DNA from: Minisyncoccia bacterium | GTDB taxonomy: Bacteria; Patescibacteriota; Minisyncoccia; Phycocordibacterales; Phycocordibacteraceae | DNA: 64,000 nucleotides | Assembly: GCA_038207395.1 (NCBI GenBank) | Contig: JBBQZW010000001.1 | Location: 13,530 to 77,529 of the forward strand | Direction: 5' to 3' | Shown: positions 9,060 to 54,153 of the stretch, one piece after another | How positions within the stretch are numbered: the stretch's first letter is position 1 | Layout: each line of letters opens with the position of its first letter | The notes under the pieces: generated by a model | The model's database searches: none | Told to the model about the DNA's origin: nothing | What the model saw: only the letters and a program-made list of their open reading frames with translations | Translations under genes and position numbers: made by a program

Positions 9060-10448
9060 ATGGATATTCTCACTCTTTCGCGCATTCAGTTTGGCGGCAC
9101 AGCAGCATTCCATATTCTTTGGCCACTCCTTTCTATCGGTCTTGGAATATACCTTTTCGTGCTTGAGGCGCTGTGGCTCAAAACGAAGAATGATTCGTAC
9201 TACCGTCAACTTCGCTTCTGGGTAAAGATTTTTGTACTTACCTTTGTTATGGGAACAGCTTCAGGTATTCCCCTCGAGTTTGAGTTCGGTACGAACTGGG
9301 CAGCCTTTTCAAACGCTGCAGGAGACTTTATGGGAAACATTCTCGGCTTTGAATCAACGGTTGCGTTTGCGCTAGAAGCAGCCTTCCTGGGTATATTCGC
9401 CTTCGGGTGGAAGCGTGTGCGCCCCGCTATCCACCTTTTTGCAAATGGCATGGTTGCCTTTGGGGCAACGCTCTCTGCGTTCTGGATAATGGTCGCAAAC
9501 TCATGGATGCAAATCCCAACAGGCATTACCGTAGAAGGTACAAAAATAATCGTGACGGACTATATGGTCGCGATCTTTAACCCTGGCTCACTTATTAGTT
9601 TTGCCCATATGGAAATCGCTTGTATTGAGACGACTCTCTTTTTCATTATGGGTATTTCAGCGTTTGCAATACTAAAAGCCACCGATACGGCGCGTAAAGA
9701 ATTCTTTCTCCAGTCATTTCGTATTGCGCTTGCTATTGCAGTACTTATTACACCGCTTCAGCTATTCTTGGGGGACATTTCTGGCCAAGTAGTTGCAAAG
9801 TATCAGCCAGAGAAACTGGCTTCTCTTGAAATGCACTGGGATACAAACCCGCCAGGCGTTGGTGCAGGGTATTCAGTTCTTGCTTGGCCCGCTATGGAAG
9901 GAGGTCGCAATACCTTTGATGCCCAAATCCCAAACGGACTTTCTCTTATTACTACGCATTCAGTAACCGGTGAGGTAAAGGGTCTGAACGAATACCGTCC
10001 GGAGGATCGTCCGACTCCTATAAACTCAATTCTTACGTTCTACTCGTTCCGTCTGATGGTGCTTTGCGGCATTATCATGTTTGCACTCATGATTGTTGGT
10101 ATGTGGTACTGGAAGAAGGGGCGACTCACCGTCGACGCAGTTACTAAGCACCGCTGGTTCTGGCGTTCTTGGATCTTTGCCATACCCCTCGGCTTTATTG
10201 CCACTGAAGCAGGGTGGATGGTACGTGAGATTGGACGCCAGCCGTGGGTGGTGTATCACCTTATGCGTACAAGTGAGGGTGTTTCTCCGAACCTTTCTGC
10301 CGTACCTGTTGCCATAACGACCGCACTCTTCGCGCTATTCTATCTAGTCTCAATTGTTGGATTTATATACTTTACCTATCGCATCGTCCGCAAAGGCCCT
10401 GATCTTACCAGTCCTGTCATTCGCTACATGCCCCGCACCACGCCATGA
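9060..10448 (+). CDS. cydA: cytochrome bd ubiquinol oxidase subunit I
   Basis: 462 aa. Strong CydA similarity (GGTAAFHILWP..., GWKRV, Q-loop region). Confidence 0.9.
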   Translation: MDILTLSRIQFGGTAAFHILWPLLSIGLGIYLFVLEALWLKTKNDSYYRQLRFWVKIFVLTFVMGTASGIPLEFEFGTNWAAFSNAAGDFMGNILGFESTVAFALEAAFLGIFAFGWKRVRPAIHLFANGMVAFGATLSAFWIMVANSWMQIPTGITVEGTKIIVTDYMVAIFNPGSLISFAHMEIACIETTLFFIMGISAFAILKATDTARKEFFLQSFRIALAIAVLITPLQLFLGDISGQVVAKYQPEKLASLEMHWDTNPPGVGAGYSVLAWPAMEGGRNTFDAQIPNGLSLITTHSVTGEVKGLNEYRPEDRPTPINSILTFYSFRLMVLCGIIMFALMIVGMWYWKKGRLTVDAVTKHRWFWRSWIFAIPLGFIATEAGWMVREIGRQPWVVYHLMRTSEGVSPNLSAVPVAITTALFALFYLVSIVGFIYFTYRIVRKGPDLTSPVIRYMPRTTP

Positions 10449-11287
10449 CCGAGATTCTGCATCTTATTCCAGTGTACTGGCATATGGATTGGCTCCCTGC
10501 CTTATGGTTCTTTACTATTGCTCTTGAGATTGGACTCTATCTGATGCTTGATGGTGCAGATCTGGGTATTGGCATTCTCTCACTATTTTCTAAGAACGAG
10601 CATACTCGAGGGTACGTTATGCAAGTGATTGGTCCTATATGGGACGCAAACGAAACCTGGTTAGTGGTTGCGGCTGGAACACTCTTTGGTGCATTCCCCC
10701 TTGCTTACGGCATCATCCTAAGCGCACTCTACATTCCAGTGATGATCCTCATCTTTGGTCTTATTCTCCGAGCAGTATCCTTCGAGTTCTATCATTTCGC
10801 CTCACGCAAGCGTATCTGGGGACGATTCTTTGGCATTGGGAGTCTGATGGCTGCTGTTGGACAGGGACTACTTGCAGGCGGACTTGTGTCTGGCATTGCT
10901 GTGTCTAATGGTGAGTTTGTAGGGGGACCTCTTAGTTTTGCAACTCCTATCGCTTTCGTGATAACGGCTGGTATTGTTATTGCGTACCTGTGTACGGGTA
11001 AAGCATACCTCGTTCGCCGTCATGAATCATCAGGATCCTTAAAGCGCCTTATGTACCCTTCTGCTCTGGCCGTGCTGGCGGTTGCCTTTGGAACAGTGAC
11101 TATTGTTTTGCTTCCAAACCTCGTGCCGCCGAGCATAACTATCTATACAGCAGCGGCCTCACATAAGACATTGAAGTTTATGCTCTACGGAATAGGGCCA
11201 CTAATTCCAATTATCTTTGCGTATAATCTGTATTTGTATAGAGTGTTCCGCGAAGAGCGTGAGGAGAGCCGTGACGACACGTATTAA
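10445..11287 (+). CDS. cydB: cytochrome bd ubiquinol oxidase subunit II
   Basis: 280 aa, multi-TM. 4-nt overlap with cydA. CydB-like start (DLGIGILS..., WDANETW). Confidence 0.85.
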   Translation: MTEILHLIPVYWHMDWLPALWFFTIALEIGLYLMLDGADLGIGILSLFSKNEHTRGYVMQVIGPIWDANETWLVVAAGTLFGAFPLAYGIILSALYIPVMILIFGLILRAVSFEFYHFASRKRIWGRFFGIGSLMAAVGQGLLAGGLVSGIAVSNGEFVGGPLSFATPIAFVITAGIVIAYLCTGKAYLVRRHESSGSLKRLMYPSALAVLAVAFGTVTIVLLPNLVPPSITIYTAAASHKTLKFMLYGIGPLIPIIFAYNLYLYRVFREEREESRDDTY

Positions 11288-17509: not shown

Positions 17510-20425
17510 TTACGGAATTAAGTTTAGAATCTTACCCGCTCTATAGATAACGCGGCTGGGAGTACCTGTTGGAAATGCCTTTGCTACGTTTGGTTCAGAG
17601 AGTGCAGCTTTGACCGCTTCTTCCTCAGTCGCTGAGGGTGAAATCTGTATTTCTCCTTTCCGTTTCCCTGCTATTTGCACTCCTATAATCACAGCATCTT
17701 CCGTGAGAAGGGTCTCATCAAAGGAAGGCCAGGGAAGTTGGTGGATACTTTGCTCTGAAGGAAGTGCCCCTTCGTTAACTGAAATTTGCGCGTACATATG
17801 TTCGGTAAGATGCGGCGCAAATGGAGAAAGTAGCGTTAAGAAAGTACCAAAGCCGTCATGCGAAATATGGTCTTGGGTTTCGAGCGCATTAACAAGAATC
17901 ATAAGCGCAGAAACTGCAGTATTCAATTTAAAACGCTCTATATCTGCTGACATTTTTATCGTCGCCTTAGCAAGCGCTTTTTGTTCAGCTTCTGTGGCTG
18001 GAGCATCACTAGTTTTTGTACGAAGTGCGTAGCATCGATCAAGGAAACGGCGCATCGCCTCTATGCCTTCTGGTTTCCAAGGATAGTTACCCGGTTCGTT
18101 ATACGAACCAATAAAGGAAAGGTACATGCGTACCGCATCAGCACCATACTTTGCCACCACTTCATCAGGATTAATAACGTTTCCTTTTGATTTCGACATC
18201 TTTTGTCCGTCAGGACCTATGATAAGTCCGCGGTTGTATCGCTCGTAAAACGGTTCAGCGGTTGGAACAAGCGCAAGATCGTACATTGCCTTGTAGAAGA
18301 ACCGTGAATACAAAAGGTGCAGAGTCGTGTGCTCCGCTCCGCCTGAATACCGATTAACAGGAAGCCAGTTTTTCATCACCTCAGTGCTTGAAAATTGTTT
18401 TTCATCATGAGGCGCAAGATACCGCATGAAGTACCATGAAGAATCTACGAAGGTATCAAGTGTGTCACACTCAGGTGTCCAGCCTTCGCCAAATATTCCG
18501 GTAACGCGGTCTTTGAGTTCTTTGCTTGTTGCGAGCGGAGATACCCCTGATGGGGTGAAATCTACGTCAGTGGGCAAAAGCCAAGGTAGGTGTTCGCTTG
18601 GTACCAGGTGCGCCTTCCCTTCCGGGTCATAGACAACAGGTATCGGACAGCCCCAGTACCGCTGACGCGAAACTAACCAGTCGCGAAGACGATAGTTCGT
18701 CGTACGTTCACCACCTGCAGCGTCTGTGATGTCTGCCATTGCCTCCTGACTTTCTCTATTGGAATACTCTCCGGAATTAATGAGCGTGCCTGCGTCCGTA
18801 TAAACATAGTGGTCAGAAAAGATTTGCTCAACGGCATACTGATGAGTGCGTGCGGTGAGCTGCTTGCGTAATTCTTCTTTGGATAACCACACAATCTCGT
18901 GCCGTACTTCCTCTTCTGGAGCCACTGCGTCACGCATGTCGCTCGTTAGCTCCATACGTAAAATATGTCCGTGGGTTAGACGGTTTTGCTCTTTAGGAAC
19001 GTGATAAAACAAGCCATCAACAATTCCGTATGACTCAACTACACGTGCATCGGTATATCCTGTTTCTTCTCGTAATTCACGAAGTGCTGTTTCTGCCGCA
19101 GAATCATCACCTTCCATACCACCGGTGAGGAGGGTGGTCCAGCCAACATTTTTCCACTTTAAAGCAAGATATTTTTCTTCCGACCAGTGTCTTATGAGCG
19201 CTATAACTCCATCAGTAATGGTGACTGGTTCGTCTGATTTAAATGCTCCGGGTTCTTCCGTTTGTACGAGGCGGGGTGCAACAACTTGAACGATAGGGAG
19301 CTCAAACTTTGTTGCAAATTCAAAGTCACGCTCGTCATGTGCAGGAACGGCCATAACCGCACCTGTTCCGTATGAGCCCAGTACATAGTCAGCGACAAAG
19401 ACCGGAATTTCCTCTCTTGTAAGCGGATGAATGGCCATGATGCCTGTAAGTTGTACCCCTGTTTTTTCTTTATTCTCCATGCGCTCCCGCTCTGTTTTCT
19501 TCTTCGCTTCTTCTACGTATGCACGAACTGCAGCTTCGTTTGAGAGCACATCATGCTCACCATCGAGCGCAGCGAGTACCCAGGGATGTTCCGGAGCCAG
19601 CACAAGATAGGTTGCCCCAAAAAGAGTATCGGGCCGCGTGGTAAATACAGCGACTTGGGCGGGGTTGCCGTCAACGTCACGCCACTCAGAATCTTCAGGG
19701 TGTTTTTTAAATGAGAGTGCAAAGGCCAGCTTCGCTCCCTCTGACTTTCCAATCCATTCGCGCTGCGCGCTCTTTATATCTTCGCGCCAAGGAAGTCCTT
19801 CAAGATCTGTGAGAAGTCGTTCTGCATACTTCGTAATAGAAAGAAACCATTGCGTAAGAATACGTTCTTCCACCTCGTGACCACAGCGCTCACAGGTACC
19901 GTTAATAACTTGCTCGTTAGCAAGTACGGTTTGATCATTCGGACACCACTTAACAGCAGCTTCCTTACGCTCTGCAAGCTGATGTTCAAAAAGTCGCGAG
20001 AAAAGCCACTGTGTCCATTTATAGTATTCAGGCGAGCAGGTCGCTACCTCCTTACTCCAATCAAACGAGGCACCCATTGTCCGTACCTGTGCCCGCATCG
20101 TGTCCATGTTTTCATACGTCCACTTTCTAGGATCAAGTCCACGTTTTATAGCGGCGTTCTCGGCAGGAAGTCCGAAGGCATCAAACCCAAAGGGGTAGAG
20201 AACATTTTTACCTTGCATTCGCTTGAAGCGCGCAAAAATATCGGTGATGGCAAAGGCATACCAATGGCCCACATGAAGATCGCCGGATGGGTACGGAAAT
20301 TCAATTAACAGGTAGTACGGATCTTTTGACTGATCAGATAAATCGACCTCATATATTTTTTCTTCATCCCATTTCTTCTGAGCCCATGGCTCTATTTCAG
20401 AGTGATTGTAGAATTCTTTTGCCAT
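17510..20425 (-). CDS. leuS: leucyl-tRNA synthetase with an inserted NUDIX hydrolase domain
   Basis: 971 aa. HVGH, TTRPDT editing-domain signature, GTGAVMAVPAHDERD, NYRLRDWLVSRQRYWG and KMSKS. About 170 extra residues sit between the editing domain and the RLRDW motif. Confidence 0.95.
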   Translation of the reverse strand: MAKEFYNHSEIEPWAQKKWDEEKIYEVDLSDQSKDPYYLLIEFPYPSGDLHVGHWYAFAITDIFARFKRMQGKNVLYPFGFDAFGLPAENAAIKRGLDPRKWTYENMDTMRAQVRTMGASFDWSKEVATCSPEYYKWTQWLFSRLFEHQLAERKEAAVKWCPNDQTVLANEQVINGTCERCGHEVEERILTQWFLSITKYAERLLTDLEGLPWREDIKSAQREWIGKSEGAKLAFALSFKKHPEDSEWRDVDGNPAQVAVFTTRPDTLFGATYLVLAPEHPWVLAALDGEHDVLSNEAAVRAYVEEAKKKTERERMENKEKTGVQLTGIMAIHPLTREEIPVFVADYVLGSYGTGAVMAVPAHDERDFEFATKFELPIVQVVAPRLVQTEEPGAFKSDEPVTITDGVIALIRHWSEEKYLALKWKNVGWTTLLTGGMEGDDSAAETALRELREETGYTDARVVESYGIVDGLFYHVPKEQNRLTHGHILRMELTSDMRDAVAPEEEVRHEIVWLSKEELRKQLTARTHQYAVEQIFSDHYVYTDAGTLINSGEYSNRESQEAMADITDAAGGERTTNYRLRDWLVSRQRYWGCPIPVVYDPEGKAHLVPSEHLPWLLPTDVDFTPSGVSPLATSKELKDRVTGIFGEGWTPECDTLDTFVDSSWYFMRYLAPHDEKQFSSTEVMKNWLPVNRYSGGAEHTTLHLLYSRFFYKAMYDLALVPTAEPFYERYNRGLIIGPDGQKMSKSKGNVINPDEVVAKYGADAVRMYLSFIGSYNEPGNYPWKPEGIEAMRRFLDRCYALRTKTSDAPATEAEQKALAKATIKMSADIERFKLNTAVSALMILVNALETQDHISHDGFGTFLTLLSPFAPHLTEHMYAQISVNEGALPSEQSIHQLPWPSFDETLLTEDAVIIGVQIAGKRKGEIQISPSATEEEAVKAALSEPNVAKAFPTGTPSRVIYRAGKILNLIP
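18758..19270 (-). other. NUDIX hydrolase domain inserted within LeuRS (residues ~386-556)
   Basis: Nudix box GDDSAAETALRELREETGY, flanked by a typical Nudix beta-strand region (VTITDGVIALIRHWSEEKYLALKWKNVGWTTLLTGG...). Confidence 0.7.
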
Positions 20426-24378: not shown

Positions 24379-25782
<1,404 letters not shown>

Positions 25783-25789
25783 CTAAAAG

Positions 25790-26698
25790 CTATACGGATA
25801 ATGCCTCACGCCCGCTAATAATCTCTGACACTTCGCGGGTAATGGCTGCCTGACGAAGTTTGTTGTAGAGGCGCGTGAATTCCTTAGTGCGTTCTTTTGA
25901 CTTATCAGAAGCGTTCTTCATCGCTACCATACGCGCTGAGTGCTCTGAAGCCTTTGCCTCCAGAAGCATGAAGTAGAGAGAGACTGCCACGAGGCGGGGG
26001 ATGAGAAGCGTAAGGACTTCTTCTGCTGATGGCTCAATACTGTACGTTTCTGGTGCCTCAAGAGAAATAGTACTGCTCCACTTTCCACGAGCTGGGCGAA
26101 TGCCCGTCACTATCTCACTCACCGCTTCAAGAGAAAGGGGGAGAAGTGCACGGACGGTCGGTACCTGTTCGAAGGTAGACCGGAAGTCACTATAGGCCGC
26201 AAGCACTTCGTCGAATTCTCCGTTCAGGAACCCTTGAGAGAGCTGCTGCGAAAGTTCGTCCATCGTGTTTACGGGAATACTGTCTTCACGATTTTCCTTT
26301 GCCATTACCACGGCATATCCCCGGTTACGGAAGAATTCCTCTCCTTTCTTTCCAAAGGCAAAAACCTGGATGGAATCTAGTGGACGTCCTTCAACCGCTT
26401 TCTGCGCTGCGCGTATCACGCTTGAGTTAAGCGCGCCTGCAAGTCCTCGATCACTTGTAATAACGACAAGTGCAGTCTTCTTCACTTCACGCACCTGCGT
26501 AAGCGCGTGAGACTTCACATCAGCGCTTCCTGAAAGTCGAGCAAGGATAGAGAGTGCGGCACGCGCATAAGCGCGCCCCTGAAAGGCTGCCTGCTGCGTC
26601 TTACGCATCTTTGCCGCAGACACTGCCTCCATGGCACGAGTCACCGTGTTCATGCGCTGTGTCGCGAGAATCTTTGCTTTGATGTCTTTAAGTGCCAT
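25790..26698 (-). CDS. atpG: F0F1 ATP synthase subunit gamma
   Basis: 302 aa. Conserved N- and C-terminal helices (IKAKILATQRM..., ITREVSEIISGREAL). Confidence 0.9.
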   Translation of the reverse strand: MALKDIKAKILATQRMNTVTRAMEAVSAAKMRKTQQAAFQGRAYARAALSILARLSGSADVKSHALTQVREVKKTALVVITSDRGLAGALNSSVIRAAQKAVEGRPLDSIQVFAFGKKGEEFFRNRGYAVVMAKENREDSIPVNTMDELSQQLSQGFLNGEFDEVLAAYSDFRSTFEQVPTVRALLPLSLEAVSEIVTGIRPARGKWSSTISLEAPETYSIEPSAEEVLTLLIPRLVAVSLYFMLLEAKASEHSARMVAMKNASDKSKERTKEFTRLYNKLRQAAITREVSEIISGREALSV

Positions 26699-26727
26699 GG
26701 ATTTATGGTGCGAATACTTTTCTGAGC

Positions 26728-28275
26728 TTACGCAGCGCGCTCGGTGAACTTCGTCAGAGCAGCGCGTAGTGCTGCTTCTGTCTCTTCACCAATGTCTTTG
26801 GTAGAGCGAATCAGCTCAAGTGCTTCCTTTCCTTCACGCTCTAAGAATTCCTGGAGCTTGTTCTGTGCAGAACGCGTATCTTCAGGTGCAAATGCATCGA
26901 AGAATCCGTTGATGGCGGCAAAGATAACGGCAACCTCAACTTCAAATGGAAGCGGCTTACCCTGTACCTGCGTTAACACCTCCGTCATACGGCGCCCAGA
27001 ATCAATTTGTGCCTTAGTATCAGCATCAAGATCAGAGGCAAACTGCATGAAGGCTTCAAGTTCACGGAACTGCGCAAGGGTGAGCTTAATTTTTCCAGAC
27101 ACTTTCTTCATAGCTTTTGTCTGTGCGGAAGATCCCACACGAGACACAGAGATACCCACATCAATAGCAGGACGTAGTCCTTTGTTGAAGAGATCTGCCT
27201 GAAGATAAATCTGTCCGTCAGTGATTGAAATCACGTTCGTAGGAATGTAGGCAGATACGTCACCTTCCTGCGTTTCAATGATTGGAAGCGCAGTTAATGA
27301 GCCTCCGCCCTTTTCCTTAGAAAGTTTTGCTGCTCGCTCAAGAAGGCGTGAGTGCAAATAGAAAATGTCTCCAGGATATGCCTCGCGTCCAGGAGGGCGG
27401 CGAAGGAGAAGTGACATCTGACGATACGCAACAGCCTGCTTTGAAAGGTCGTCATATACCACGAGCGCGTCACGTCCTGCGTCCATGAAGAATTCTCCGA
27501 TGGTGGCTCCCGCGAATGGCGCGAGGAACTGGAACGCGGCAGGGCTTGATGCTGGAGCCGTAACCACAATCGTGTAGTCCATTGCTCCTGCTGCAGTAAG
27601 TTCAGCCACGATACGTGCCGTCTTTGATTCCTTCTGACCGATAGCGACATAAATACAGATTGGACGAGTTTCTGCTGGTTCTGATTTCTGGTTGAGAATA
27701 GTATCAATGGCGATAGCTGTCTTTCCCGTACCACGGTCTCCAATGATGAGCTCACGCTGACCGCGACCAATCGGAATCATCGCGTCCACTGCCTTTACTC
27801 CGGTATGAAGAGGAACGTTCACTGGAGCACGGTCAATAACACCATACGCCTCACGCTCGATTGGCTTCAGCTCTACATCTTTGAGTGCTCCCTTATCGTC
27901 AACGGGTTCACCAAGCGGATTAAGTACGCGCCCTATCAAAGATTCACCTACGGGGATGGAAAGTAGGCGATTAAGGCGACGCACCTGCATTCCTTCAAAC
28001 ACATCACTGGCCTCTCCTAGAATAACGGCACGAACGCCATCTTCCTCAAGGTTAAGCACCAGACCGTACACAGACTTCGTATCCTTGAGCGCATCCTCAA
28101 GACTTCGGTCGAACGTAGGATCGAAAAGCACCATCTCTGACATCACTGCGCCATCGAGTCCGTCAATTTCTGCAATACCGTCTCCGGTCTCGCGAACAAT
28201 ACCAATGCTTTCATCTACTCCTGTGGGAGTAAAACCTGCAATTTGTTCTTCGATTCGTTTAATGATGCTTTCCAT
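26728..28275 (-). CDS. atpA: F0F1 ATP synthase subunit alpha
   Basis: GDRGTGKT P-loop. Very strong similarity. Confidence 0.95.
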   Translation of the reverse strand: MESIIKRIEEQIAGFTPTGVDESIGIVRETGDGIAEIDGLDGAVMSEMVLFDPTFDRSLEDALKDTKSVYGLVLNLEEDGVRAVILGEASDVFEGMQVRRLNRLLSIPVGESLIGRVLNPLGEPVDDKGALKDVELKPIEREAYGVIDRAPVNVPLHTGVKAVDAMIPIGRGQRELIIGDRGTGKTAIAIDTILNQKSEPAETRPICIYVAIGQKESKTARIVAELTAAGAMDYTIVVTAPASSPAAFQFLAPFAGATIGEFFMDAGRDALVVYDDLSKQAVAYRQMSLLLRRPPGREAYPGDIFYLHSRLLERAAKLSKEKGGGSLTALPIIETQEGDVSAYIPTNVISITDGQIYLQADLFNKGLRPAIDVGISVSRVGSSAQTKAMKKVSGKIKLTLAQFRELEAFMQFASDLDADTKAQIDSGRRMTEVLTQVQGKPLPFEVEVAVIFAAINGFFDAFAPEDTRSAQNKLQEFLEREGKEALELIRSTKDIGEETEAALRAALTKFTERAA

Positions 28276-46593: not shown

Positions 46594-46616
46594 CACGGAT
46601 ACCTGGCACTAACACA

Positions 46617-46653
46617 AGGGCCGCACGATTTCATCGTGCGGCCCTTTTTCTTT
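46617..46653. terminator. bidirectional rho-independent terminator between convergent genes
   Basis: agggccgcacgatttcatcgtgcggccctttttc. Confidence 0.8.
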
Positions 46654-47558: not shown

Positions 47559-50210
47559 TTATTTCTTATACACAAAGTCTACCTTCTTTTCAAATACATT
47601 GGGATCAATCTTGGGGAGTGGCGCTTCATTCATGAACTGAGTCGGCGGAATAAGAATTGGGGTCCCATCCTCAGTGGATGACCATTCGACAACTACCGGC
47701 TTACTAACTCCTGTCTCTAATATCTTTGATGTTACCTGGAATCTAATTGTTGAACCCGGATGAGTCTCAATATATTTTTGTGCTGCTGCATAGCGAGCAT
47801 CATCGTTAACTCCGCCAAATAAAGAAAGAATTTGATGACCTTTTTTATCTGTATATGAATACACGCTTGGCTCGTTGAGATTCAAGGTCAGCCCTCGAGG
47901 AGTAGTTAGTGTATTTGCTACAGATTCCAGTGGCGCTGAGGGAGCGGTATCTGGAACACTGGTCTCAGTATTCGAAGGTGCTAGTTCAGAAGCAAAGGAT
48001 TCGCTTGGTTCTGCTGCAAATCCTACAGATTCACTAGACAAAGGCTCAGTCACTTCCGTTGGAGGTATCGCTGGAGCAACTTCTGCAGTCGTCTCTAATG
48101 GTGATACTCCTGAAACTGGTGCACTACTTTCGGTAGAAGGCGCAGGTGATATTTCTTCTACTAACGGAGTGGGAGGTACTAGAGTCTCTCCTCCAGACGC
48201 CGAGGGTGTATCGACTAATTGCTCAACGCGCACCGGAGTTTGTTCAGCATTGAGAGAATGAATAGTAAATCCTTCTGCGTTTGGAGTGTTTTCTATGAAC
48301 AGCTGTGGTTTCCCGTTAACCGGGTCGTACCAAATATTTTGGTTGTCATCAACAAAAAACTGATCTCCCATCACGGTACGCATTCCCTTCTCTCCAAAGG
48401 CGTTTCCGACTTCGCGCGAAAGTGTATTTGGATTAGTTTCGAGAAAATGTTTTAAGCCAGGTGTTTGATGCGCAGAATCATACAAATTACTATTTTGAAT
48501 TGATGATTTTAATTCTTCAAATAACGTTCCTGTTCCTTCACCTGCCGTGTGTATCGTAGCTCCAACATTAAAATTAGCTGGTCCCGTACCTTCGATATTT
48601 GGAAGTCGTCCAGTACTCACTGATTCTCCCTGTAGTGTTTGCACGGTAGACGCTTTCAGCTCATGTACGGTATCTAGTGATTTTTGAACAGAGGGCAGAT
48701 GTCCAATCGAAGAATGACTGAGAATTTCTGCTGACGTAATTGATGCCGTACCAGCAACGGCAAGCGTGGTATACATTTCGACTTTCCTACGTGCAGCTTC
48801 ACGAGCTTGTGCATTGCCGCGTTCATAGAGTTTTGTTTCTTCGGCGAGCGCATCGGCATCACTAATCAATCCCGTAGTAGTATCGCGTAGCGTTCCAAGA
48901 AGAGCTTTTTGACGATTTGCACCAGCGGTAGTTGAGAATATCTTTCCAGCAAACGCACCAGCTGCAGCTCCTCCAAAAGTGCTGAGTGCGCCCCGTCCCA
49001 AGCGCCATGCAAGCATTGCTGCCCCTCCAAATCCGCCTGTCGCAACGGTCGCGATAAGTGCACCACCCAAAATGCGGGTAGAGCGTGCGTACTGCTCAGC
49101 AGCCTTTTTCTGATCAAAGTCTTCATTACTTCGCGAAATTGTTTTTGACTGTATGCGCGCGAGACCTTCACCAATTTTTTGTGTTCCGATATTCACTGCA
49201 CCCAGTATTCCAAGAGCACTATTTGTTCCCCACAAAAGCGCTTTGTTATGAAGTTTCTTACCCTTCTCATCAAGTGCTTCGCGCATTGCGGCTGTACGTG
49301 CATCCGCAGGACGAATTGCCGTATCACGAATACCTATAAACCGAGCCACTATCTTATCCTTAGTATCAGCTCCTTCGGCGACCTTCCCGAGATTTGTTCT
49401 CCAGGCAAGTCGGGCAGCATCATACTTCTCCTGTACTTCAGCAGGGATTTTTTTACCAAACGCGGTCCTTCCTATAGCTGAAGTTGAGGTGTGTAAATCA
49501 CGAACTGCATCAGCATATTCTTTCTCCGCTTCAAGCATTGCTACGCGAGAATCTTCAATTCCAAACTTCTTTGCGAATTCTTCAGCGCGCTGTTCACGTT
49601 CTATTCTTCGTCTTGAGACTCGCTCTTCCACTGATTCTTTTTTACTTTCTATATCTGCAGCGGGGAGTACTTCTGTGTTACCTTTTTCTGGAGCTTCCTG
49701 AACCTCACTAGTGGTAGGGATAGTCTCCACTGCTCCGCTAACAGTCTCATTAGGAGAAACTTCTTCTTGTTTTTCGTTTTCAATCTCTGCAACGGTTTCT
49801 ACAAATACCGCTTTTTGCTCTGCTGGCGTGAGTTTTCGTATGATATTTGATCGTATTTTCATCTCAAGCGCGTCTCCAAGTGGTCCGTTTATCGATTCAA
49901 TTTGATCTTCAAGTGAGTCAGCTAGCTTTTGCTTTTCAGCTACGTCTTCAGTGCTCATCATCTCCCGTGCTATCTCAACGGCTCGATTCTTTGCTTCCCG
50001 CAGTGCGCGTTTTTCATCTGAGATAAATACGTCTTCTTGTGTAGAGTACTCATTCCAGGCATCTAACTTTGATTCTAGTGCCTCTTCCAACTCTTCTGGT
50101 GATGCATGCACCAATCTAAGCGGCACCGCTTCAGGACGGTACAGCCGAGGAAGTTCTTCTTCAACGCTCTCTATTTTCCTTGGTGGAATTTCCCATGAGC
50201 CAATCTTCAT
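47559..50210 (-). CDS. large hypothetical protein (883 aa) with glycine-zipper hydrophobic segments and a Ser/Thr/Pro/Glu-rich linker
   Basis: N-terminal coiled-coil/acidic region. Central GGALIATVATGGFGGAAMLAWRLGRGALSTFGGAAAGAFAG. ST/P/E-rich low-complexity stretch at residues ~690-780. Globular C-terminal domain. Confidence 0.6.
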   Translation of the reverse strand: MKIGSWEIPPRKIESVEEELPRLYRPEAVPLRLVHASPEELEEALESKLDAWNEYSTQEDVFISDEKRALREAKNRAVEIAREMMSTEDVAEKQKLADSLEDQIESINGPLGDALEMKIRSNIIRKLTPAEQKAVFVETVAEIENEKQEEVSPNETVSGAVETIPTTSEVQEAPEKGNTEVLPAADIESKKESVEERVSRRRIEREQRAEEFAKKFGIEDSRVAMLEAEKEYADAVRDLHTSTSAIGRTAFGKKIPAEVQEKYDAARLAWRTNLGKVAEGADTKDKIVARFIGIRDTAIRPADARTAAMREALDEKGKKLHNKALLWGTNSALGILGAVNIGTQKIGEGLARIQSKTISRSNEDFDQKKAAEQYARSTRILGGALIATVATGGFGGAAMLAWRLGRGALSTFGGAAAGAFAGKIFSTTAGANRQKALLGTLRDTTTGLISDADALAEETKLYERGNAQAREAARRKVEMYTTLAVAGTASITSAEILSHSSIGHLPSVQKSLDTVHELKASTVQTLQGESVSTGRLPNIEGTGPANFNVGATIHTAGEGTGTLFEELKSSIQNSNLYDSAHQTPGLKHFLETNPNTLSREVGNAFGEKGMRTVMGDQFFVDDNQNIWYDPVNGKPQLFIENTPNAEGFTIHSLNAEQTPVRVEQLVDTPSASGGETLVPPTPLVEEISPAPSTESSAPVSGVSPLETTAEVAPAIPPTEVTEPLSSESVGFAAEPSESFASELAPSNTETSVPDTAPSAPLESVANTLTTPRGLTLNLNEPSVYSYTDKKGHQILSLFGGVNDDARYAAAQKYIETHPGSTIRFQVTSKILETGVSKPVVVEWSSTEDGTPILIPPTQFMNEAPLPKIDPNVFEKKVDFVYKK

Positions 50211-50221
50211 ATTATGTTCAA

Positions 50222-52975
50222 TTACGAAAGGTAACGCTGCTTAATAGTTGCTTCAACTGTAGCACGGTCACGTCCGTACGTGAGATACGAAAGTTGACGG
50301 AGATCATCAATTTGATCAGGGTTTCCAGCAGACAAGGTACGAGTTTTTATATTGAATGGTTTCTGCGGAACGCCATTTGCAAGAATCTTCACATACGCGT
50401 TTCGGTTTTCAATATTCGTAAAGTCCTTTGCTTCAAAGGTAGGGGTAAATTGCTTACCGAAGAACTCCCCATCATCCTGACCAACGCGGAACACACTCAT
50501 TGAGCCAACGTTTCCGAAGACCGCATCACGAATCTTTTCATCAATCTGTGCGAGGAACTGATGCGCAATGGTGAGAGAGAGTTTATACTTTCGGGCTTCA
50601 GACAAAATACCGGGAATCGAATCCGTGGTGATGTTTTGGAATTCGTCGATATACAAATAGAACGGTGCAAACGTACCTCGTGGATTATCCGCACGAGAAA
50701 GTGCGGCCATGAAGAGCTTTCCAACCAAGATGAGACCAAGTAAGTTTGCATTACGTTCTCCGAGGCGTCCTTTTGAGAGATTCACGAGCAGAATCTTTTT
50801 GTTGTCGATAATGTCTCGGAAATTAAATGACGATTCCTGCTGACCAATGATTGGACGCATGAAGTCATTTGCCGTGAAGTCATCAAACTTATTCGTAATA
50901 TACGGAACAATGTTTTCAAGTGACGCATCCCCTCCTGCCTTGCTCGCAATCTCGTTCCAGAACTGATTAACTATCGGGTTATGTGAACGCGAGAGTTTTA
51001 GATCACGGAATTCTTTGTTTGAAAGAACGCGCCCAATGTCCATCAGTGTTGATCCTGATGCCGGATCTTCCATTACTAGAAGTGTTGCATTACGGAAATA
51101 CTGCTCAAAGGCAGGGCCCATAGACTCAGGCACATCCCCATATAGGCGTCGGAAAATAGCCAAGAGCTCATTTACGATAAACGTTTTTTGTTCAGGATAG
51201 GCGGCATCGTATTCAAGAAGATTGAGTCCTATAGGGCGTGAAAGTTCTGCAGGATCGAAATAGATTACGTCTTCATAGCGTTCCGGCGGAATGGTTGCGA
51301 GAACATCCAGAATGTCGTTTCCATGCGGATCAATGAAACACACACCATTACCCGCTTTAATATCTTGCTCAATCAGTGTGCGAAGGAATCCAGATTTACC
51401 GGTACCAGTTTGTCCAATGACATACAGGTGACGCAAGCGATCTTCAGGAGAAATACGAACTTCGGTTGTTTGCCCTCGGAAGGTATTCGTTCCAAGGATA
51501 ATACCCTCGTTCGGGAGATCAACGGGTGCGGCAGCTCCCGTGAAGCGGGCTTGTTTGAGATGGGGTGACGACTCAATACCGTTAGGAGGAAAATGATAGA
51601 GCGTTGTGAGCTCATGAAGTGAAAGTGGAAGCGTTGCACTTTCTTCAAATAAGCGGAAACTAATGTCGTGAAAGAGACGGCGCAAACTTCCCTTTGAGAC
51701 ACGCTGCCAAACAATGCGGTTGCCGAGAGGATTCTCAAACTGATGGAATGATGACTCAAGCTCAGTAAGAATGTGTGCGGCTCGCTCAGGGTTCTGTGAA
51801 GAAACCGCAAAGCGCATGTTAACGGAAAGTATAGGAGCGCTAATCTTTTTTTCTACTTCTTCAATTTCTGTCTTATTAGACTGAAGTTCACGCCGGCGCG
51901 TACGATCAGCTTCCATTTTCTGATTATTCTTAAAAAATGTGGTGCTTAGTTCACGCACAGCTTCTCCGAAAAACGATTCGGGGATTCGTAAGGAATCGTG
52001 TTTATCTTCGCCCCTGCGAAGGGCTTCAAGGATTCTGCGCGTATGGGTTGTATGGCGATCTCCTTCTGGCTTAATCACTATCTGGAGTGATGCTCCTTCA
52101 TTCTCCGGAGAGATTTTTCCAAATGCATTTAAGAGCGTGTTTAATGGGTCATAATCAAAGCTCGTATAGTCCTTTATCGGAAGCGCTGCGGGCTGTGCCA
52201 GAGTTGCCACAGAAGCAACGCTCGTACCGTCTTGTACGAATACGTTGTAATCATTCGGCTGCACGGTAATGTGCGCGCCGGGGAAAATGGCTAAGATTTG
52301 TTTTTCAAAAAGATCGCAGCGGGAATTAGGTACGGCAGCGTAGAACATAAGGTGCGCCTGACCAACAGGAACGGCCAGTTCGAGTGTGAAATACGCAGGC
52401 TCACCAGTGTGTGCGTGTTCGAGTCCAAATAACCCAGAGTAGAACTGCTCCATCGCTGAAAGAAGTTCTTTGAGCGGCTTTGCTTTTTCTTGATCTGACG
52501 TTCCTGTTATCTCAGGAAGTGCGATCTCGTACATAGTCATGTGCAGCGCACGCCACGCAGGCTGCTTTTCGGTAAAACCTTGTACGGTCATTCCCTTTAC
52601 TAAATACTGCACAAGAAAACGATGGAAATCATCTTCAATATGAGGCGAGTTTAGATTCTCAAGTACGGAAAATGCATTCTTAATGCCCTTTGTTTCCATA
52701 ATGTCCCGGAGCTCCTGAATAGTTTCGTCATCACTTTCAGGATCAAGGTTAAGGGCGAGAGTCTTTGCTTCCTGCGAAGAAAGTATGTACGCAGGATCAA
52801 GCGCTGCATGACCATTCTCTCTATGGTGCGTGATACGCTCATGCACAATGTCTTCGCGTGGTCGCGATTCTTTGAGTGCCGCTAATTCTTGTTCTTTAAC
52901 GGCAATCTGTTCACGCAAAAATGCGAGTTCTTGCTCAGGAGTTGCGACTGTTGCTACAGGACCTTCAAATGCCAT
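50222..52975 (-). CDS. FtsK/HerA-clade P-loop ATPase of the VirB4/VirD4 (T4SS translocation ATPase) superfamily with ~500-aa N-terminal extension
   Basis: Walker A HLYVIGQTGTGKSG. Walker B YLYIDEFQNI. C-terminal KYKLSLTIAHQFLAQI...FGNVGSMSVFRVGQDD, like the TraG/VirD4/VirB4 Q-motif. 917 aa. Confidence 0.7.
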   Translation of the reverse strand: MAFEGPVATVATPEQELAFLREQIAVKEQELAALKESRPREDIVHERITHHRENGHAALDPAYILSSQEAKTLALNLDPESDDETIQELRDIMETKGIKNAFSVLENLNSPHIEDDFHRFLVQYLVKGMTVQGFTEKQPAWRALHMTMYEIALPEITGTSDQEKAKPLKELLSAMEQFYSGLFGLEHAHTGEPAYFTLELAVPVGQAHLMFYAAVPNSRCDLFEKQILAIFPGAHITVQPNDYNVFVQDGTSVASVATLAQPAALPIKDYTSFDYDPLNTLLNAFGKISPENEGASLQIVIKPEGDRHTTHTRRILEALRRGEDKHDSLRIPESFFGEAVRELSTTFFKNNQKMEADRTRRRELQSNKTEIEEVEKKISAPILSVNMRFAVSSQNPERAAHILTELESSFHQFENPLGNRIVWQRVSKGSLRRLFHDISFRLFEESATLPLSLHELTTLYHFPPNGIESSPHLKQARFTGAAAPVDLPNEGIILGTNTFRGQTTEVRISPEDRLRHLYVIGQTGTGKSGFLRTLIEQDIKAGNGVCFIDPHGNDILDVLATIPPERYEDVIYFDPAELSRPIGLNLLEYDAAYPEQKTFIVNELLAIFRRLYGDVPESMGPAFEQYFRNATLLVMEDPASGSTLMDIGRVLSNKEFRDLKLSRSHNPIVNQFWNEIASKAGGDASLENIVPYITNKFDDFTANDFMRPIIGQQESSFNFRDIIDNKKILLVNLSKGRLGERNANLLGLILVGKLFMAALSRADNPRGTFAPFYLYIDEFQNITTDSIPGILSEARKYKLSLTIAHQFLAQIDEKIRDAVFGNVGSMSVFRVGQDDGEFFGKQFTPTFEAKDFTNIENRNAYVKILANGVPQKPFNIKTRTLSAGNPDQIDDLRQLSYLTYGRDRATVEATIKQRYLS

Positions 52976-53033: not shown

Positions 53034-53633
53034 CTACGGAACGAACGTAACACTCGTAATACTGTTTCTGAGAGCGTAGACAGTACTTGAAGCCGTTGCT
53101 GGGAGTGGCTCTAGTATTTCAAAGGCGAAACAAGCGTCTCCTTTAAGTGTTCGGTAGCTAGTTACCTGTTGCGGATTATCCGTTCCTACTTTCTCAAATG
53201 AAAAATGCTGCCAGGTGGTACTGCCAACGATTAGTTCCTCCTGTTTTGTTTCTGCAGGATCTTTTTTAAGACAAGTAGCTTTTTCGCGAGAGTCAGTGCT
53301 TACTCCTACCAGAAGTACTCCCTGAGTGCTTTGAATTCGTACTATTGGAGTTCCTTTCCCGCTAGCGTTCGTACGCCAAGCTAAGTCATGCGCTGATGAA
53401 CTTGCAAACGAGTCAGTTACCACGCCATCTGCTGGGTAAAAGAAAGAAAATCCATACACACCATTGGTGTATATAGAAAGTGATGACGGATCTGTTTCCT
53501 GGACTGACACTTCCACAGGAGTGGTGACGGGCGCAGGAGATAGTGCTTTGATACGAAAAAGTACGAGGACAGTCGCAATGAGAATGAGTAGAGTAAGAAT
53601 GCCGCCAAGTACCATCCATCCGAAACGTGTCAT
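53034..53633 (-). CDS. membrane-anchored hypothetical protein (N-terminal TM, extracytoplasmic beta-rich domain)
   Basis: 199 aa. One N-terminal TM helix. Confidence 0.5.
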   Translation of the reverse strand: MTRFGWMVLGGILTLLILIATVLVLFRIKALSPAPVTTPVEVSVQETDPSSLSIYTNGVYGFSFFYPADGVVTDSFASSSAHDLAWRTNASGKGTPIVRIQSTQGVLLVGVSTDSREKATCLKKDPAETKQEELIVGSTTWQHFSFEKVGTDNPQQVTSYRTLKGDACFAFEILEPLPATASSTVYALRNSITSVTFVP

Positions 53634-53685: not shown

Positions 53686-54153
53686 TTACGACTCTAATGA
53701 AGTGAGTACGAAACGATTTTCATAGAAGTATCCAGTGACCGTTATGGCTTCCCCATCACTAATCTTTGGATATCCGCTACTGCCGCTATATCCCGGAACG
53801 CACGGAAGATCTCCTGCACCTGGGGCACATCCGCGAGCATCAAGAAAGGTAAGCTGCTTTGTTGCTACTCTATTTGATTCGTCCATATACCTAATAAAGG
53901 GAACGGCTGGAATGCCTGACGAATAATCGAGTACCGCAGTACCGTGGATTGTGTATAGCTCAGTGTCGTAAGACGATTCCGTGCCAATGGATTGTGGAAT
54001 TTCAACTCTGGCCGTAGGTACTGAGTCTGCTACTGAAGCTGTAATAGCGAGCGTAGGTATGGGGGTATCACGAAGCAATAGAATGCTACCAACAATCACA
54101 CAAACACCAAATATAAGCACACCTACCACTTTCATTACCAAAGGGTACGCCAC
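53686..54153 (-). CDS. membrane-anchored hypothetical protein
   Basis: 155 aa. One N-terminal TM helix. Confidence 0.5.
   Translation of the reverse strand: MAYPLVMKVVGVLIFGVCVIVGSILLLRDTPIPTLAITASVADSVPTARVEIPQSIGTESSYDTELYTIHGTAVLDYSSGIPAVPFIRYMDESNRVATKQLTFLDARGCAPGAGDLPCVPGYSGSSGYPKISDGEAITVTGYFYENRFVLTSLES

Follow-up and report, generated by a model that had tools for sequence, protein, structure and literature searches.

Type IV coupling proteins (T4CPs) normally select the substrates of type IV secretion systems (T4SSs). TrwB (R388), VirD4, TraD, TraG and DotL have a P-loop motor with an all-alpha insert between Walker A and Walker B, and the canonical members carry a two-helix N-terminal membrane stalk and are linked to relaxase and/or mating-pair-formation genes. 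VirB4 (TrwK in R388; structures 7O42 and 8RTD) combines a large soluble alpha/beta N-domain with a RecA-like motor and is the signature ATPase of the T4SS cluster, where it stands beside VirB3, VirB6 and VirB8. A census of Patescibacteria counted 5,713 T4CP homologues in 2,918 genomes and already reported orphan T4CPs of the kind considered here (Quinonero-Coronel et al. 2025, PMC12102498). In this study an ATPase gene (50222..52975, minus strand) from a 64,000-nucleotide stretch of DNA of a Minisyncoccia bacterium (assembly GCA_038207395.1, contig JBBQZW010000001.1; the whole stretch is referred to as the window) is compared with these systems. The gene almost certainly belongs to the same set of genes as the orphan VirD4-type T4CP homologues of that census, the passages of which consulted here give no account of the N-terminal domain, its VirB4-like fold, the transmembrane (TM) and soluble variants or the hypervariable downstream gene.

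The window ATPase shares its motor and all-alpha insert with the T4CPs, whereas the membrane stalk of the canonical members is replaced by a 140-amino acid (aa) helical extension and a 350-aa DUF8128 domain; the gene is chromosomal and vertically inherited, and no relaxase or mating-pair-formation gene was found among the window open reading frames (ORFs) scanned. Like TrwK/VirB4, the protein has a large soluble alpha/beta N-domain ahead of its motor. We favour, with a probability of roughly 45%, the reading that it represents in Paceibacteria a separate T4CP subfamily, in which a module resembling the VirB4 N-domain precedes a VirD4-type motor, with or without one N-terminal TM helix. In public databases this class of genes appears as Pfam DUF8128 or, in PGAP annotation, as "DUF87 domain-containing" or "TraM recognition domain-containing" protein. 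A full-text literature search for "DUF8128" returned no paper, and the papers searched contained no description of the VirB4-like N-domain fold, of the connection with phage proteins and the T4CPs of Bacillus plasmids, of the TM and soluble variants or of the hypervariable downstream gene.

The motor and the DUF8128 domain

The gene is a single ATG-to-stop ORF of 917 aa with full-length homologues and an AlphaFold2 model, and the identical database protein is P0001. The motifs quoted in the original prediction, which had placed the protein in the VirB4/VirD4 superfamily of ATPases, are all present: GQTGTGKSG at aa 521-529, YIDEFQ at aa 775-780, LSLTIAHQFLAQI at aa 799-811 and VFRVGQDD at aa 828-835. 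Walker A (GQTGTGKS, aa 521-528) lies at 51392..51415 and Walker B (FYLYIDEF, aa 772-779) at 50639..50662, both on the minus strand. In an 80-sequence family alignment G521, G524, G526 and K527 of Walker A, E778 of Walker B, R795 and Q806 are all invariant, so the motifs are conserved and not chance matches, and the enzyme should be active. The elements of an FtsK/HerA-superfamily P-loop motor, namely Walker A, Walker B and the downstream conserved Arg/Gln, are all intact, and the predicted superfamily membership is upheld.

A search of 5.8 billion proteins found more than 1,600 homologues, the best 120 of which are full-length and 68-100% identical, and a scan of one genome per species found relatives in at least 578 species (61-81% identity for the best 80). 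The close homologues are all labelled Parcubacteria, Paceibacterota or Kaiserbacteria, and overall the protein keeps 61-87% identity in hundreds of Paceibacteria genomes. Identity to syntenic relatives is 69-87% for the ATPase, compared with 78-81% for UvrB, 75-80% for TGT, 62-81% for FKBP and 52-54% for a sigma factor encoded in the window. Such conservation marks the gene as genuine and subject to strong purifying selection and, since the ATPase is as conserved as its housekeeping neighbours, as a vertically inherited core gene of the clade and not a recent acquisition. Its guanine-cytosine (GC) content is 0.46 against a window average of 0.47. A prophage or mobile island was rejected on account of this average GC content and of synteny conserved in at least 80 species.

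The C-terminal part of the protein (aa 496-917; 50225..51490, minus strand) was assigned as a T4CP-type (VirD4/TrwB/TraG) nucleotide-binding domain using hhalign, Foldseek, NCBIfam and a PDB profile search. Against single R388 sequences (reference NC_028464), the profile of this domain matched TrwB with a probability of 96% (E 4e-9, 325 columns, TrwB residues 115-479) and TrwK/VirB4 with 7% over 89 columns, while a CPR (candidate phyla radiation) VirB4 scored 28%. The value of 89% (E 2e-6) obtained with a 9-sequence VirB4 C-domain profile is consistent with only the expected superfamily-level relationship. When the PDB was searched with the 80-sequence family profile, DotL (3e-8) and TrwB (1e-7) were the best matches and no VirB4 was found at E<=0.01. 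The top NCBIfam matches were TraD (SXT/TOL) and the CD1115 VirD4-like family (aa 492-829 against positions 2-355 of 442), with all curated cut-offs missed widely (39 bits vs 366). Local Pfam gave weak DUF87 (aa 502-552) and TraG-D_C matches only; the precomputed annotation of more divergent CPR homologues includes TrwB_AAD_bind (PF10412), T4SS-DNA_transf (PF02534) and TraG-D_C (PF12696), and AAA_10, P-loop_TraG and CagE_TrbE_VirB are absent from the Pfam annotation of the window ATPase and ~240 homologues. An all-helical insert between Walker A and Walker B (aa 596-724; 50804..51190, minus strand) takes the position of the T4CP all-alpha domain, as seen by DSSP on the model and by PF10412 on many homologues. 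The full-length AlphaFold model (predicted local distance difference test, pLDDT, 86.9) aligns with TrwB in Foldseek at a template modelling (TM) score of 0.62-0.66 normalised to TrwB, with a root-mean-square deviation of ~5 A. Judged from these comparisons, the motor domain is of the coupling-protein type and not of the VirB4 type.

The N-terminal ~500 aa, which the original prediction had described as uncharacterised, indeed gave no match in local Pfam, NCBIfam or PDB sequence searches. The region corresponds to PF26449 (DUF8128), which is precomputed on P0001 and on nearly all homologues; the assignment comes from this precomputed annotation, as the local Pfam copy lacks PF26449. The DUF8128 core (aa 140-495; 51491..52558, minus strand) has two alpha/beta subdomains and a helical insert at aa 307-378 in the AlphaFold2 model. 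Eight diverse N-domains searched against Pfam at E<=10 recovered no VirB4 and no other meaningful family, and the comparisons revealed no clear full-length homology of the protein to a well-characterised family. With phmmer, aa 1-495 matched 934 clusters among 1.84 billion cluster representatives (50% identity), 141 of them at E<=1e-30. Full-length DUF8128 members are 800-1,000 aa long, which indicates that the domain is normally fused to a T4CP-type ATPase.

The resemblance of this domain to VirB4 comes from structure comparison. The AlphaFold model of aa 140-495 is of high predicted quality (pLDDT 92.4, predicted TM-score 0.90), and in a Foldseek search of the PDB its top 14 matches were all R388 TrwK/VirB4 chains (E 6e-6 to 2e-3, probability 1.0, TM-score 0.37-0.43), followed by HemQ, chlorite dismutase and others at E>8e-3 and low probability. 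The full-length model is collinear with full-length TrwK over ~900 columns, the best E of all (1e-14). The TrwK match probably falls on the VirB4 N-terminal domain, because the N-domain has no P-loop fold and matched no other RecA-like ATPase, because the full-length model aligns with TrwK over ~900 columns, and because the partial chain 8rtd_h (457 residues) is matched by the N-domain model and is not in the top 50 of the full-length model. Among solved structures the N-domain model matches only TrwK/VirB4, and in appearance the protein would thus be a VirB4-type head on a T4CP motor. The link is structural only, since hhalign gave probabilities below 1% for the DUF8128 profile against a 9-sequence VirB4 N-domain profile, TrwK, Firmicute VirB4s, a CPR VirB4 and a CPR TraC-like protein; TM-scores to TrwK/VirB4 are only 0.3-0.43, and there is no detectable sequence similarity between the two N-domains.

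These results bear on whether the protein could be a divergent VirB4 paralogue, that is, an assembly or energising ATPase and not a coupling protein. VirB3-VirB4 fusions are known, and the layout of TM helix, DUF8128 and ATPase found in many CPR members resembles them; together with the TrwK matches of the N-domain and full-length models, this speaks for such a paralogue. However, the motor is nearer to T4CPs in every sequence test, no VirB4 Pfam family occurs on the ~240 homologues, separate canonical VirB4s are encoded beside family members and fill the VirB4 role there, and the Bacillus plasmid homologue occupies a T4CP position beside a relaxase-like gene. We consider a VirB4 paralogue quite improbable. 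The original prediction had leaned towards VirB4/TrbE/ConE over a coupling protein; this fails for the motor and survives in part for the architecture, where the N-domain model matches TrwK/VirB4 only and the full-length model is collinear with TrwK.

Variants of the family and their genomic settings

The region ahead of DUF8128 differs between members. Of the 80 members in alignment A1, 35 carry a strongly hydrophobic helix at the N-terminus, ahead of DUF8128; most CPR lineages are represented among them, such as Saccharibacteria, Falkowbacteria and Berkelbacteria. Some 28 others, which comprise the phage G group and part of the CPR members, are soluble and have only 20-50 residues before the domain. 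The clade of the window protein and a few members at 45% identity have instead a soluble helical extension of ~175 aa without a TM helix. In the window protein the clade-specific extension (aa 1-139; 52559..52975, minus strand; coiled-coil-like at aa 13-58) takes the place of the TM helix, according to a model of low to medium confidence and alignment A1. A Kyte-Doolittle scan of the window ATPase found no TM-like hydrophobic segment above threshold, which agrees with the original prediction of no obvious TM helix. A pLS20-type T4CP was rejected, as the VirD4 of pLS20 has two N-terminal TM helices and belongs to another plasmid family.

Bacillus plasmids of 27-69 kb (B. licheniformis, B. subtilis and B. 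methanolicus pBM69) encode a soluble "DUF87" protein of 885-913 aa with the same architecture (DUF8128 E 1e-32 and motor E 1e-66 with the family hidden Markov models, HMMs). Annotated as "DUF87 domain-containing protein" (NZ_CP035190.1, NZ_OX419568.1 and pBM69), it differs from the window ATPase in being plasmid-borne and in lacking the N-terminal extension, and its motor is ~26% identical; no experimental characterisation of it was found. It is the first gene of its operon and is followed by a gene that RefSeq names "replication-relaxation family protein"; Pfam Replic_Relax was found in the B. licheniformis plasmid protein (locus L010), while its counterpart in locus L011 has no Pfam match. 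In the B. subtilis plasmid, where this was tested, TcpC, TcpE and VirB4 (AAA_10, 4e-83) complete a Tcp/ICEBs1-type transfer module. Its place at the head of a transfer operon, beside a relaxase-like gene, puts the DUF87 protein in the T4CP position on these plasmids.

Two observations on plasmids can be added. Plasmids NZ_CP035190.1 (L010, 1-9154) and NZ_OX419568.1 (L011, 6111-17420) are typed by MOB-suite as 'non-mobilizable' despite a seemingly complete Tcp/ICEBs1-like operon, in which genes annotated as conjugal transfer proteins come after the DUF8128-T4CP and replication-relaxation genes, so mobility may be under-called in such cases. The closest plasmid relative of the motor, at 35% identity, is a stand-alone protein of 395 aa on the Sulfitobacter plasmid NZ_CP081110.1 (L009, 6929-8116); it has neither a TM domain nor DUF8128 and is surrounded by transposases and a DUF3768 gene.

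Large Bacillus phages carry further members. For phage G gp156 and its relatives in SPO1-like phages (SP-10, CP-51 and JL; PHROG 5156), homology begins at about aa 175-200 and covers most of DUF8128 and the motor. PHROG 5156 matches the window ATPase at E 1e-67 over aa 204-913, tblastn gives 21-23% identity over aa ~175-910, and Foldseek against BFVD gives E 1.7e-44. Compared with the window ATPase, the gp156 group is phage-encoded, lacks the N-extension and has no partner-like downstream gene; gp156 is instead paired with its VirB4-like neighbour gp155. This pair (L004, 4249-8391) places a VirB4-like ATPase (P-loop_TraG, 1.6e-15) next to a DUF8128-T4CP-type ATPase, and on sequence grounds it amounts to a two-ATPase T4SS energy module in a jumbo phage.

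Homologues in Bacillus phages and plasmids, together with a PADLOC mad8 match (1.7e-12), weak HerA and DndH matches and the appearance of DptH in the PDB profile search, might suggest an anti-phage defence component or the remnant of a mobile element or prophage. This explanation is highly improbable, because the defence matches are limited to the generic P-loop core, the phage homologues are just 21-23% identical, and the locus is stable and syntenic in at least 80 species, with no integrase, no deviation in GC content and housekeeping neighbours.

Within the CPR, some members lie in or near recognisable T4SS clusters. The gene of P0215 (L008) adjoins, in divergent orientation, a PrgI/VirB4/M23 cluster near dnaN, and P0224 (L013), which is 45% identical to the window ATPase and has the N-extension, lies between PrgI/TraC-like/VirB4 genes and a VirB6-like protein; three further CPR members have housekeeping neighbours only. 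Where such clusters are present, separate bona fide VirB4 genes adjoin the family members. In L013 (3301-5894) a 223-aa 'TraC-like' protein (PF26593), a 171-aa ORF and a 437-aa P-loop protein stand in a row, and in L008 (4264-6122) VirB4 fragments of 387 aa and 231 aa follow one another; VirB4 function appears from these gene lengths and annotations to be split in both clusters.

The locus and its hypervariable partner

The scan of the window for T4SS genes covered 20 ORFs, made up of nine neighbours, ten further ORFs, mainly large, and the ATPase. They encode UvrA, UvrB and UvrC, TGT, FKBP, a Pif1-like helicase, a leucyl-tRNA synthetase (LeuRS), ATP synthase, cytochrome bd and a photolyase. 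The window also encodes the sigma factor with a DUF5667 protein; DUF5663 and DUF5667 are CPR-specific families. These families and the labels of the close homologues place the window in an ultra-small CPR bacterium of the Paceibacteria type. The locus is stable and syntenic in at least 80 species.

This setting raises the alternative that the protein is a DNA translocase exapted to work without a T4SS, its T4CP-derived ring pumping DNA in a housekeeping process, for example in DNA uptake with ComEC and type IV pili, in segregation or dimer resolution in place of FtsK, or in HerA-like repair. Its vertical inheritance, housekeeping-level conservation and synteny with housekeeping genes would fit such a role, as would the frequency of DNA metabolism among the window neighbours (uvrA/B/C, Pif1 helicase and photolyase), the neighbours in other lineages (DNA pol III gamma, gyrase, RuvA and DinB) and weak profile matches to the DNA-import ATPases CedD and CedB and to HerA. 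In addition, most CPR genomes have it as an orphan gene, and it is dispensable in Southlakia (PMC12102498). As CPR genomes are tiny and dense with DNA-metabolism genes, however, little weight attaches to the neighbours, which also vary by lineage. No FtsK gamma or TM domain, no HerA HAS-barrel and no full-length FtsK or HerA profile match was found in the window ATPase; FtsK_SpoIIIE (aa 512-535) fell below the cut-off, HerA matched weakly (E 0.03-0.08), and both matches are limited to the P-loop region. Furthermore, the family members with informative neighbours adjoin T4SS or relaxase genes. An exapted translocase is judged unlikely, although it is the likeliest of the alternatives to the favoured reading.

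Downstream of the ATPase, on the same strand, lie in order a partner gene, a DUF5663 gene, the FKBP gene and a hairpin. The partner (47559..50210, minus strand) is an ORF of 883 aa in a conserved position; it begins after a gap of 11 nt from the ATPase stop codon and is probably co-transcribed with the ATPase. The hairpin (46616..46646) is GC-rich with a 14-bp stem and T-runs and lies between convergent genes; it is probably a bidirectional terminator at the end of the ATPase-partner-DUF5663-FKBP unit. The N-terminal part of the partner is acidic and helical, and its centre holds one or two hydrophobic segments rich in Gly and Ala (aa ~380-425); a linker rich in Pro, Ser and Thr and a C-terminal domain of ~115 aa (aa 765-883; 47562..47918, minus strand) complete the protein, and this domain is the only region conserved among partners as judged by alignment and HMM. 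The partner had no match in Pfam, NCBIfam, PHROG or PADLOC, its profile search of the PDB returned chance-level matches only (E>=0.036), and 3 homologues were found in the 5.8 billion proteins. A VirB6-like identity was rejected for the partner, which has no similarity to the VirB6-like proteins of L013 and L011 and has one or two weak hydrophobic segments where those proteins have six or more strong TM helices.

The position of the partner is conserved across the clade and its sequence is not. Of 71 evaluable species genomes, 57 have a large ORF (446-1,267 aa) after the ATPase, starting at a median of 5 bp past the stop codon. Over 1,596 genome pairs ATPase identity is 54-97% with a median of 65%, while 69% of the partner pairs have no BLAST hit, and even at 84% ATPase identity the partners are 0-13% identical. 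The C-terminal domain was detected by HMM in 33 of the 57 partners and in no other ORF of the window or of loci L001-L023; with the domain confined to partner ORFs, there is no sign of a multi-effector family. The partner is the best candidate for a tether or cargo of the ATPase, and it may be membrane-anchored through its central hydrophobic segment.

It could also be that ATPase and partner form a self-contained two-gene module, in which the ATPase would energise the export, insertion or presentation of the hypervariable partner. Type VII secretion offers the analogy, where the FtsK-family ATPase EssC/EccC is paired with variable downstream substrates. The short gap between the genes, the recurrence of a large downstream ORF and the extremely asymmetric divergence described above all fit such a module. 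The conserved C-terminal domain could serve as a recognition module, the central hydrophobic segment and the linker rich in Pro, Ser and Thr are retained as well, and the clade with the partner is the clade whose ATPase has lost the TM helix. On the other hand, there is no partner beside the more distant N-extension members P0207 and P0224, the C-terminal domain was found in only 33 of the 57 partners and in no other window ORF, and adjacency alone is no proof of a functional link. This explanation seems to us improbable, somewhat more so than an exapted translocase.

Several other features of the window were noted. Directly upstream of the ATPase lie genes for two small proteins (53034-53633 and 53686-54153, minus strand) with one N-terminal TM helix each; their position is conserved, their identity in relatives is 28-60%, and one has a weak PsbP_2-like match. 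The LeuRS (17510-20425, minus strand; 971 aa) has a NUDIX domain (aa 425-524, E 1e-9) inserted after its editing domain, which is an unusual fusion. The window further encodes cytochrome bd oxidase subunit I (9060-11287, plus strand; E 9e-147), with a probable subunit II downstream, and the alpha and beta subunits of an F-type ATP synthase (24379-28275, minus strand). CPR genomes are usually described as lacking respiratory chains.

A proposed mechanism and its implications

According to the favoured reading, the window protein would be a soluble T4CP of the VirD4/TrwB family, presumably hexameric like other members. It would serve as substrate receptor and motor of a patescibacterial (MPF-FATA-like) T4SS encoded elsewhere in the genome. 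Support comes from the T4CP affinity of the motor, the TrwK matches of the models, the T4SS or relaxase genes beside family members in L008, L013, phage G and the Bacillus plasmids, conservation close to the housekeeping level and the shared operon with the partner. A syntenic relative with a 71% identical orthologue, GCA_001189195.1, is moreover VirB4-positive in Table S1 of PMC12102498. The VirB4 N-domain sits on the VirB3/VirB8 membrane platform in the R388 structures, and by analogy DUF8128 would dock the ATPase ring to the base of the T4SS, on the side of the membrane platform that faces the cytoplasm. Substrate binding would fall to the helical insert (aa 596-724), and ATP hydrolysis would drive the transfer of protein or DNA through the channel. 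As few CPR bacteria have relaxases, the substrate is more likely to be protein or non-conjugative DNA. In the Paceibacteria clade the N-terminal TM helix of most CPR members would have been replaced by the 140-aa helical extension, and the ATPase gene would be co-transcribed with that of the hypervariable 883-aa partner.

Several points weigh against this reading. The scan of 20 window ORFs revealed no T4SS, relaxase or pilin gene, in agreement with the original prediction of a chromosomal gene without T4SS partners. According to the census, only 148 of the 5,713 patescibacterial T4CP homologues are near virB4, t4cp of Southlakia epibionticum is non-essential although its T4SS is essential, relaxases are rare in CPR bacteria, and the authors leave exaptation open (PMC12102498). 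The likeness of DUF8128 to the VirB4 N-domain comes from Foldseek (TM-score 0.37-0.43), with no profile-profile support. Finally, the Kyte-Doolittle scan gave no TM helix for the window protein. T4CPs without TM helices are known, for example TraJ of pIP501.

A bolder interpretation is that the DUF8128 ATPases are a third, hitherto undescribed lineage of type IV secretion ATPases, with a VirB4-type N-domain and a VirD4-type motor, which would be either a relic of the transition from VirB4 to T4CP or an ancient recombinant. Such a lineage would occur almost universally in the CPR, inherited vertically, and would have members in Bacillus plasmids and large phages as well. In Paceibacteria its tie to conjugation may have been lost, and it may now power the export or presentation of the hypervariable protein encoded directly downstream, either alone or through the T4SS that CPR bacteria require. 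This interpretation is speculative and unlikely; if it were true, the Paceibacteria ATPase and its partner would be a host-interaction or arms-race module.

The CPR way of life relies on other cells, and no T4SS but that of the CPR has been shown to be indispensable for the growth of the organism that encodes it. As T4CPs are normally the substrate selectors and CPR T4CPs are orphan genes, the family is relevant to the question of what the CPR T4SS moves and how its substrates are chosen. If the N-domain of these proteins is a VirB4-like docking module, this suggests how a T4CP without a stalk could engage the machine, and the architecture bears on the divergence of VirB4 and T4CPs. Useful handles are offered by the interfaces of DUF8128, by the TM and soluble variants and by the Bacillus plasmid homologue, whose host is amenable to genetics. 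A candidate for cargo or for a surface partner is the product of the hypervariable gene located after the ATPase gene in ~80% of related species.

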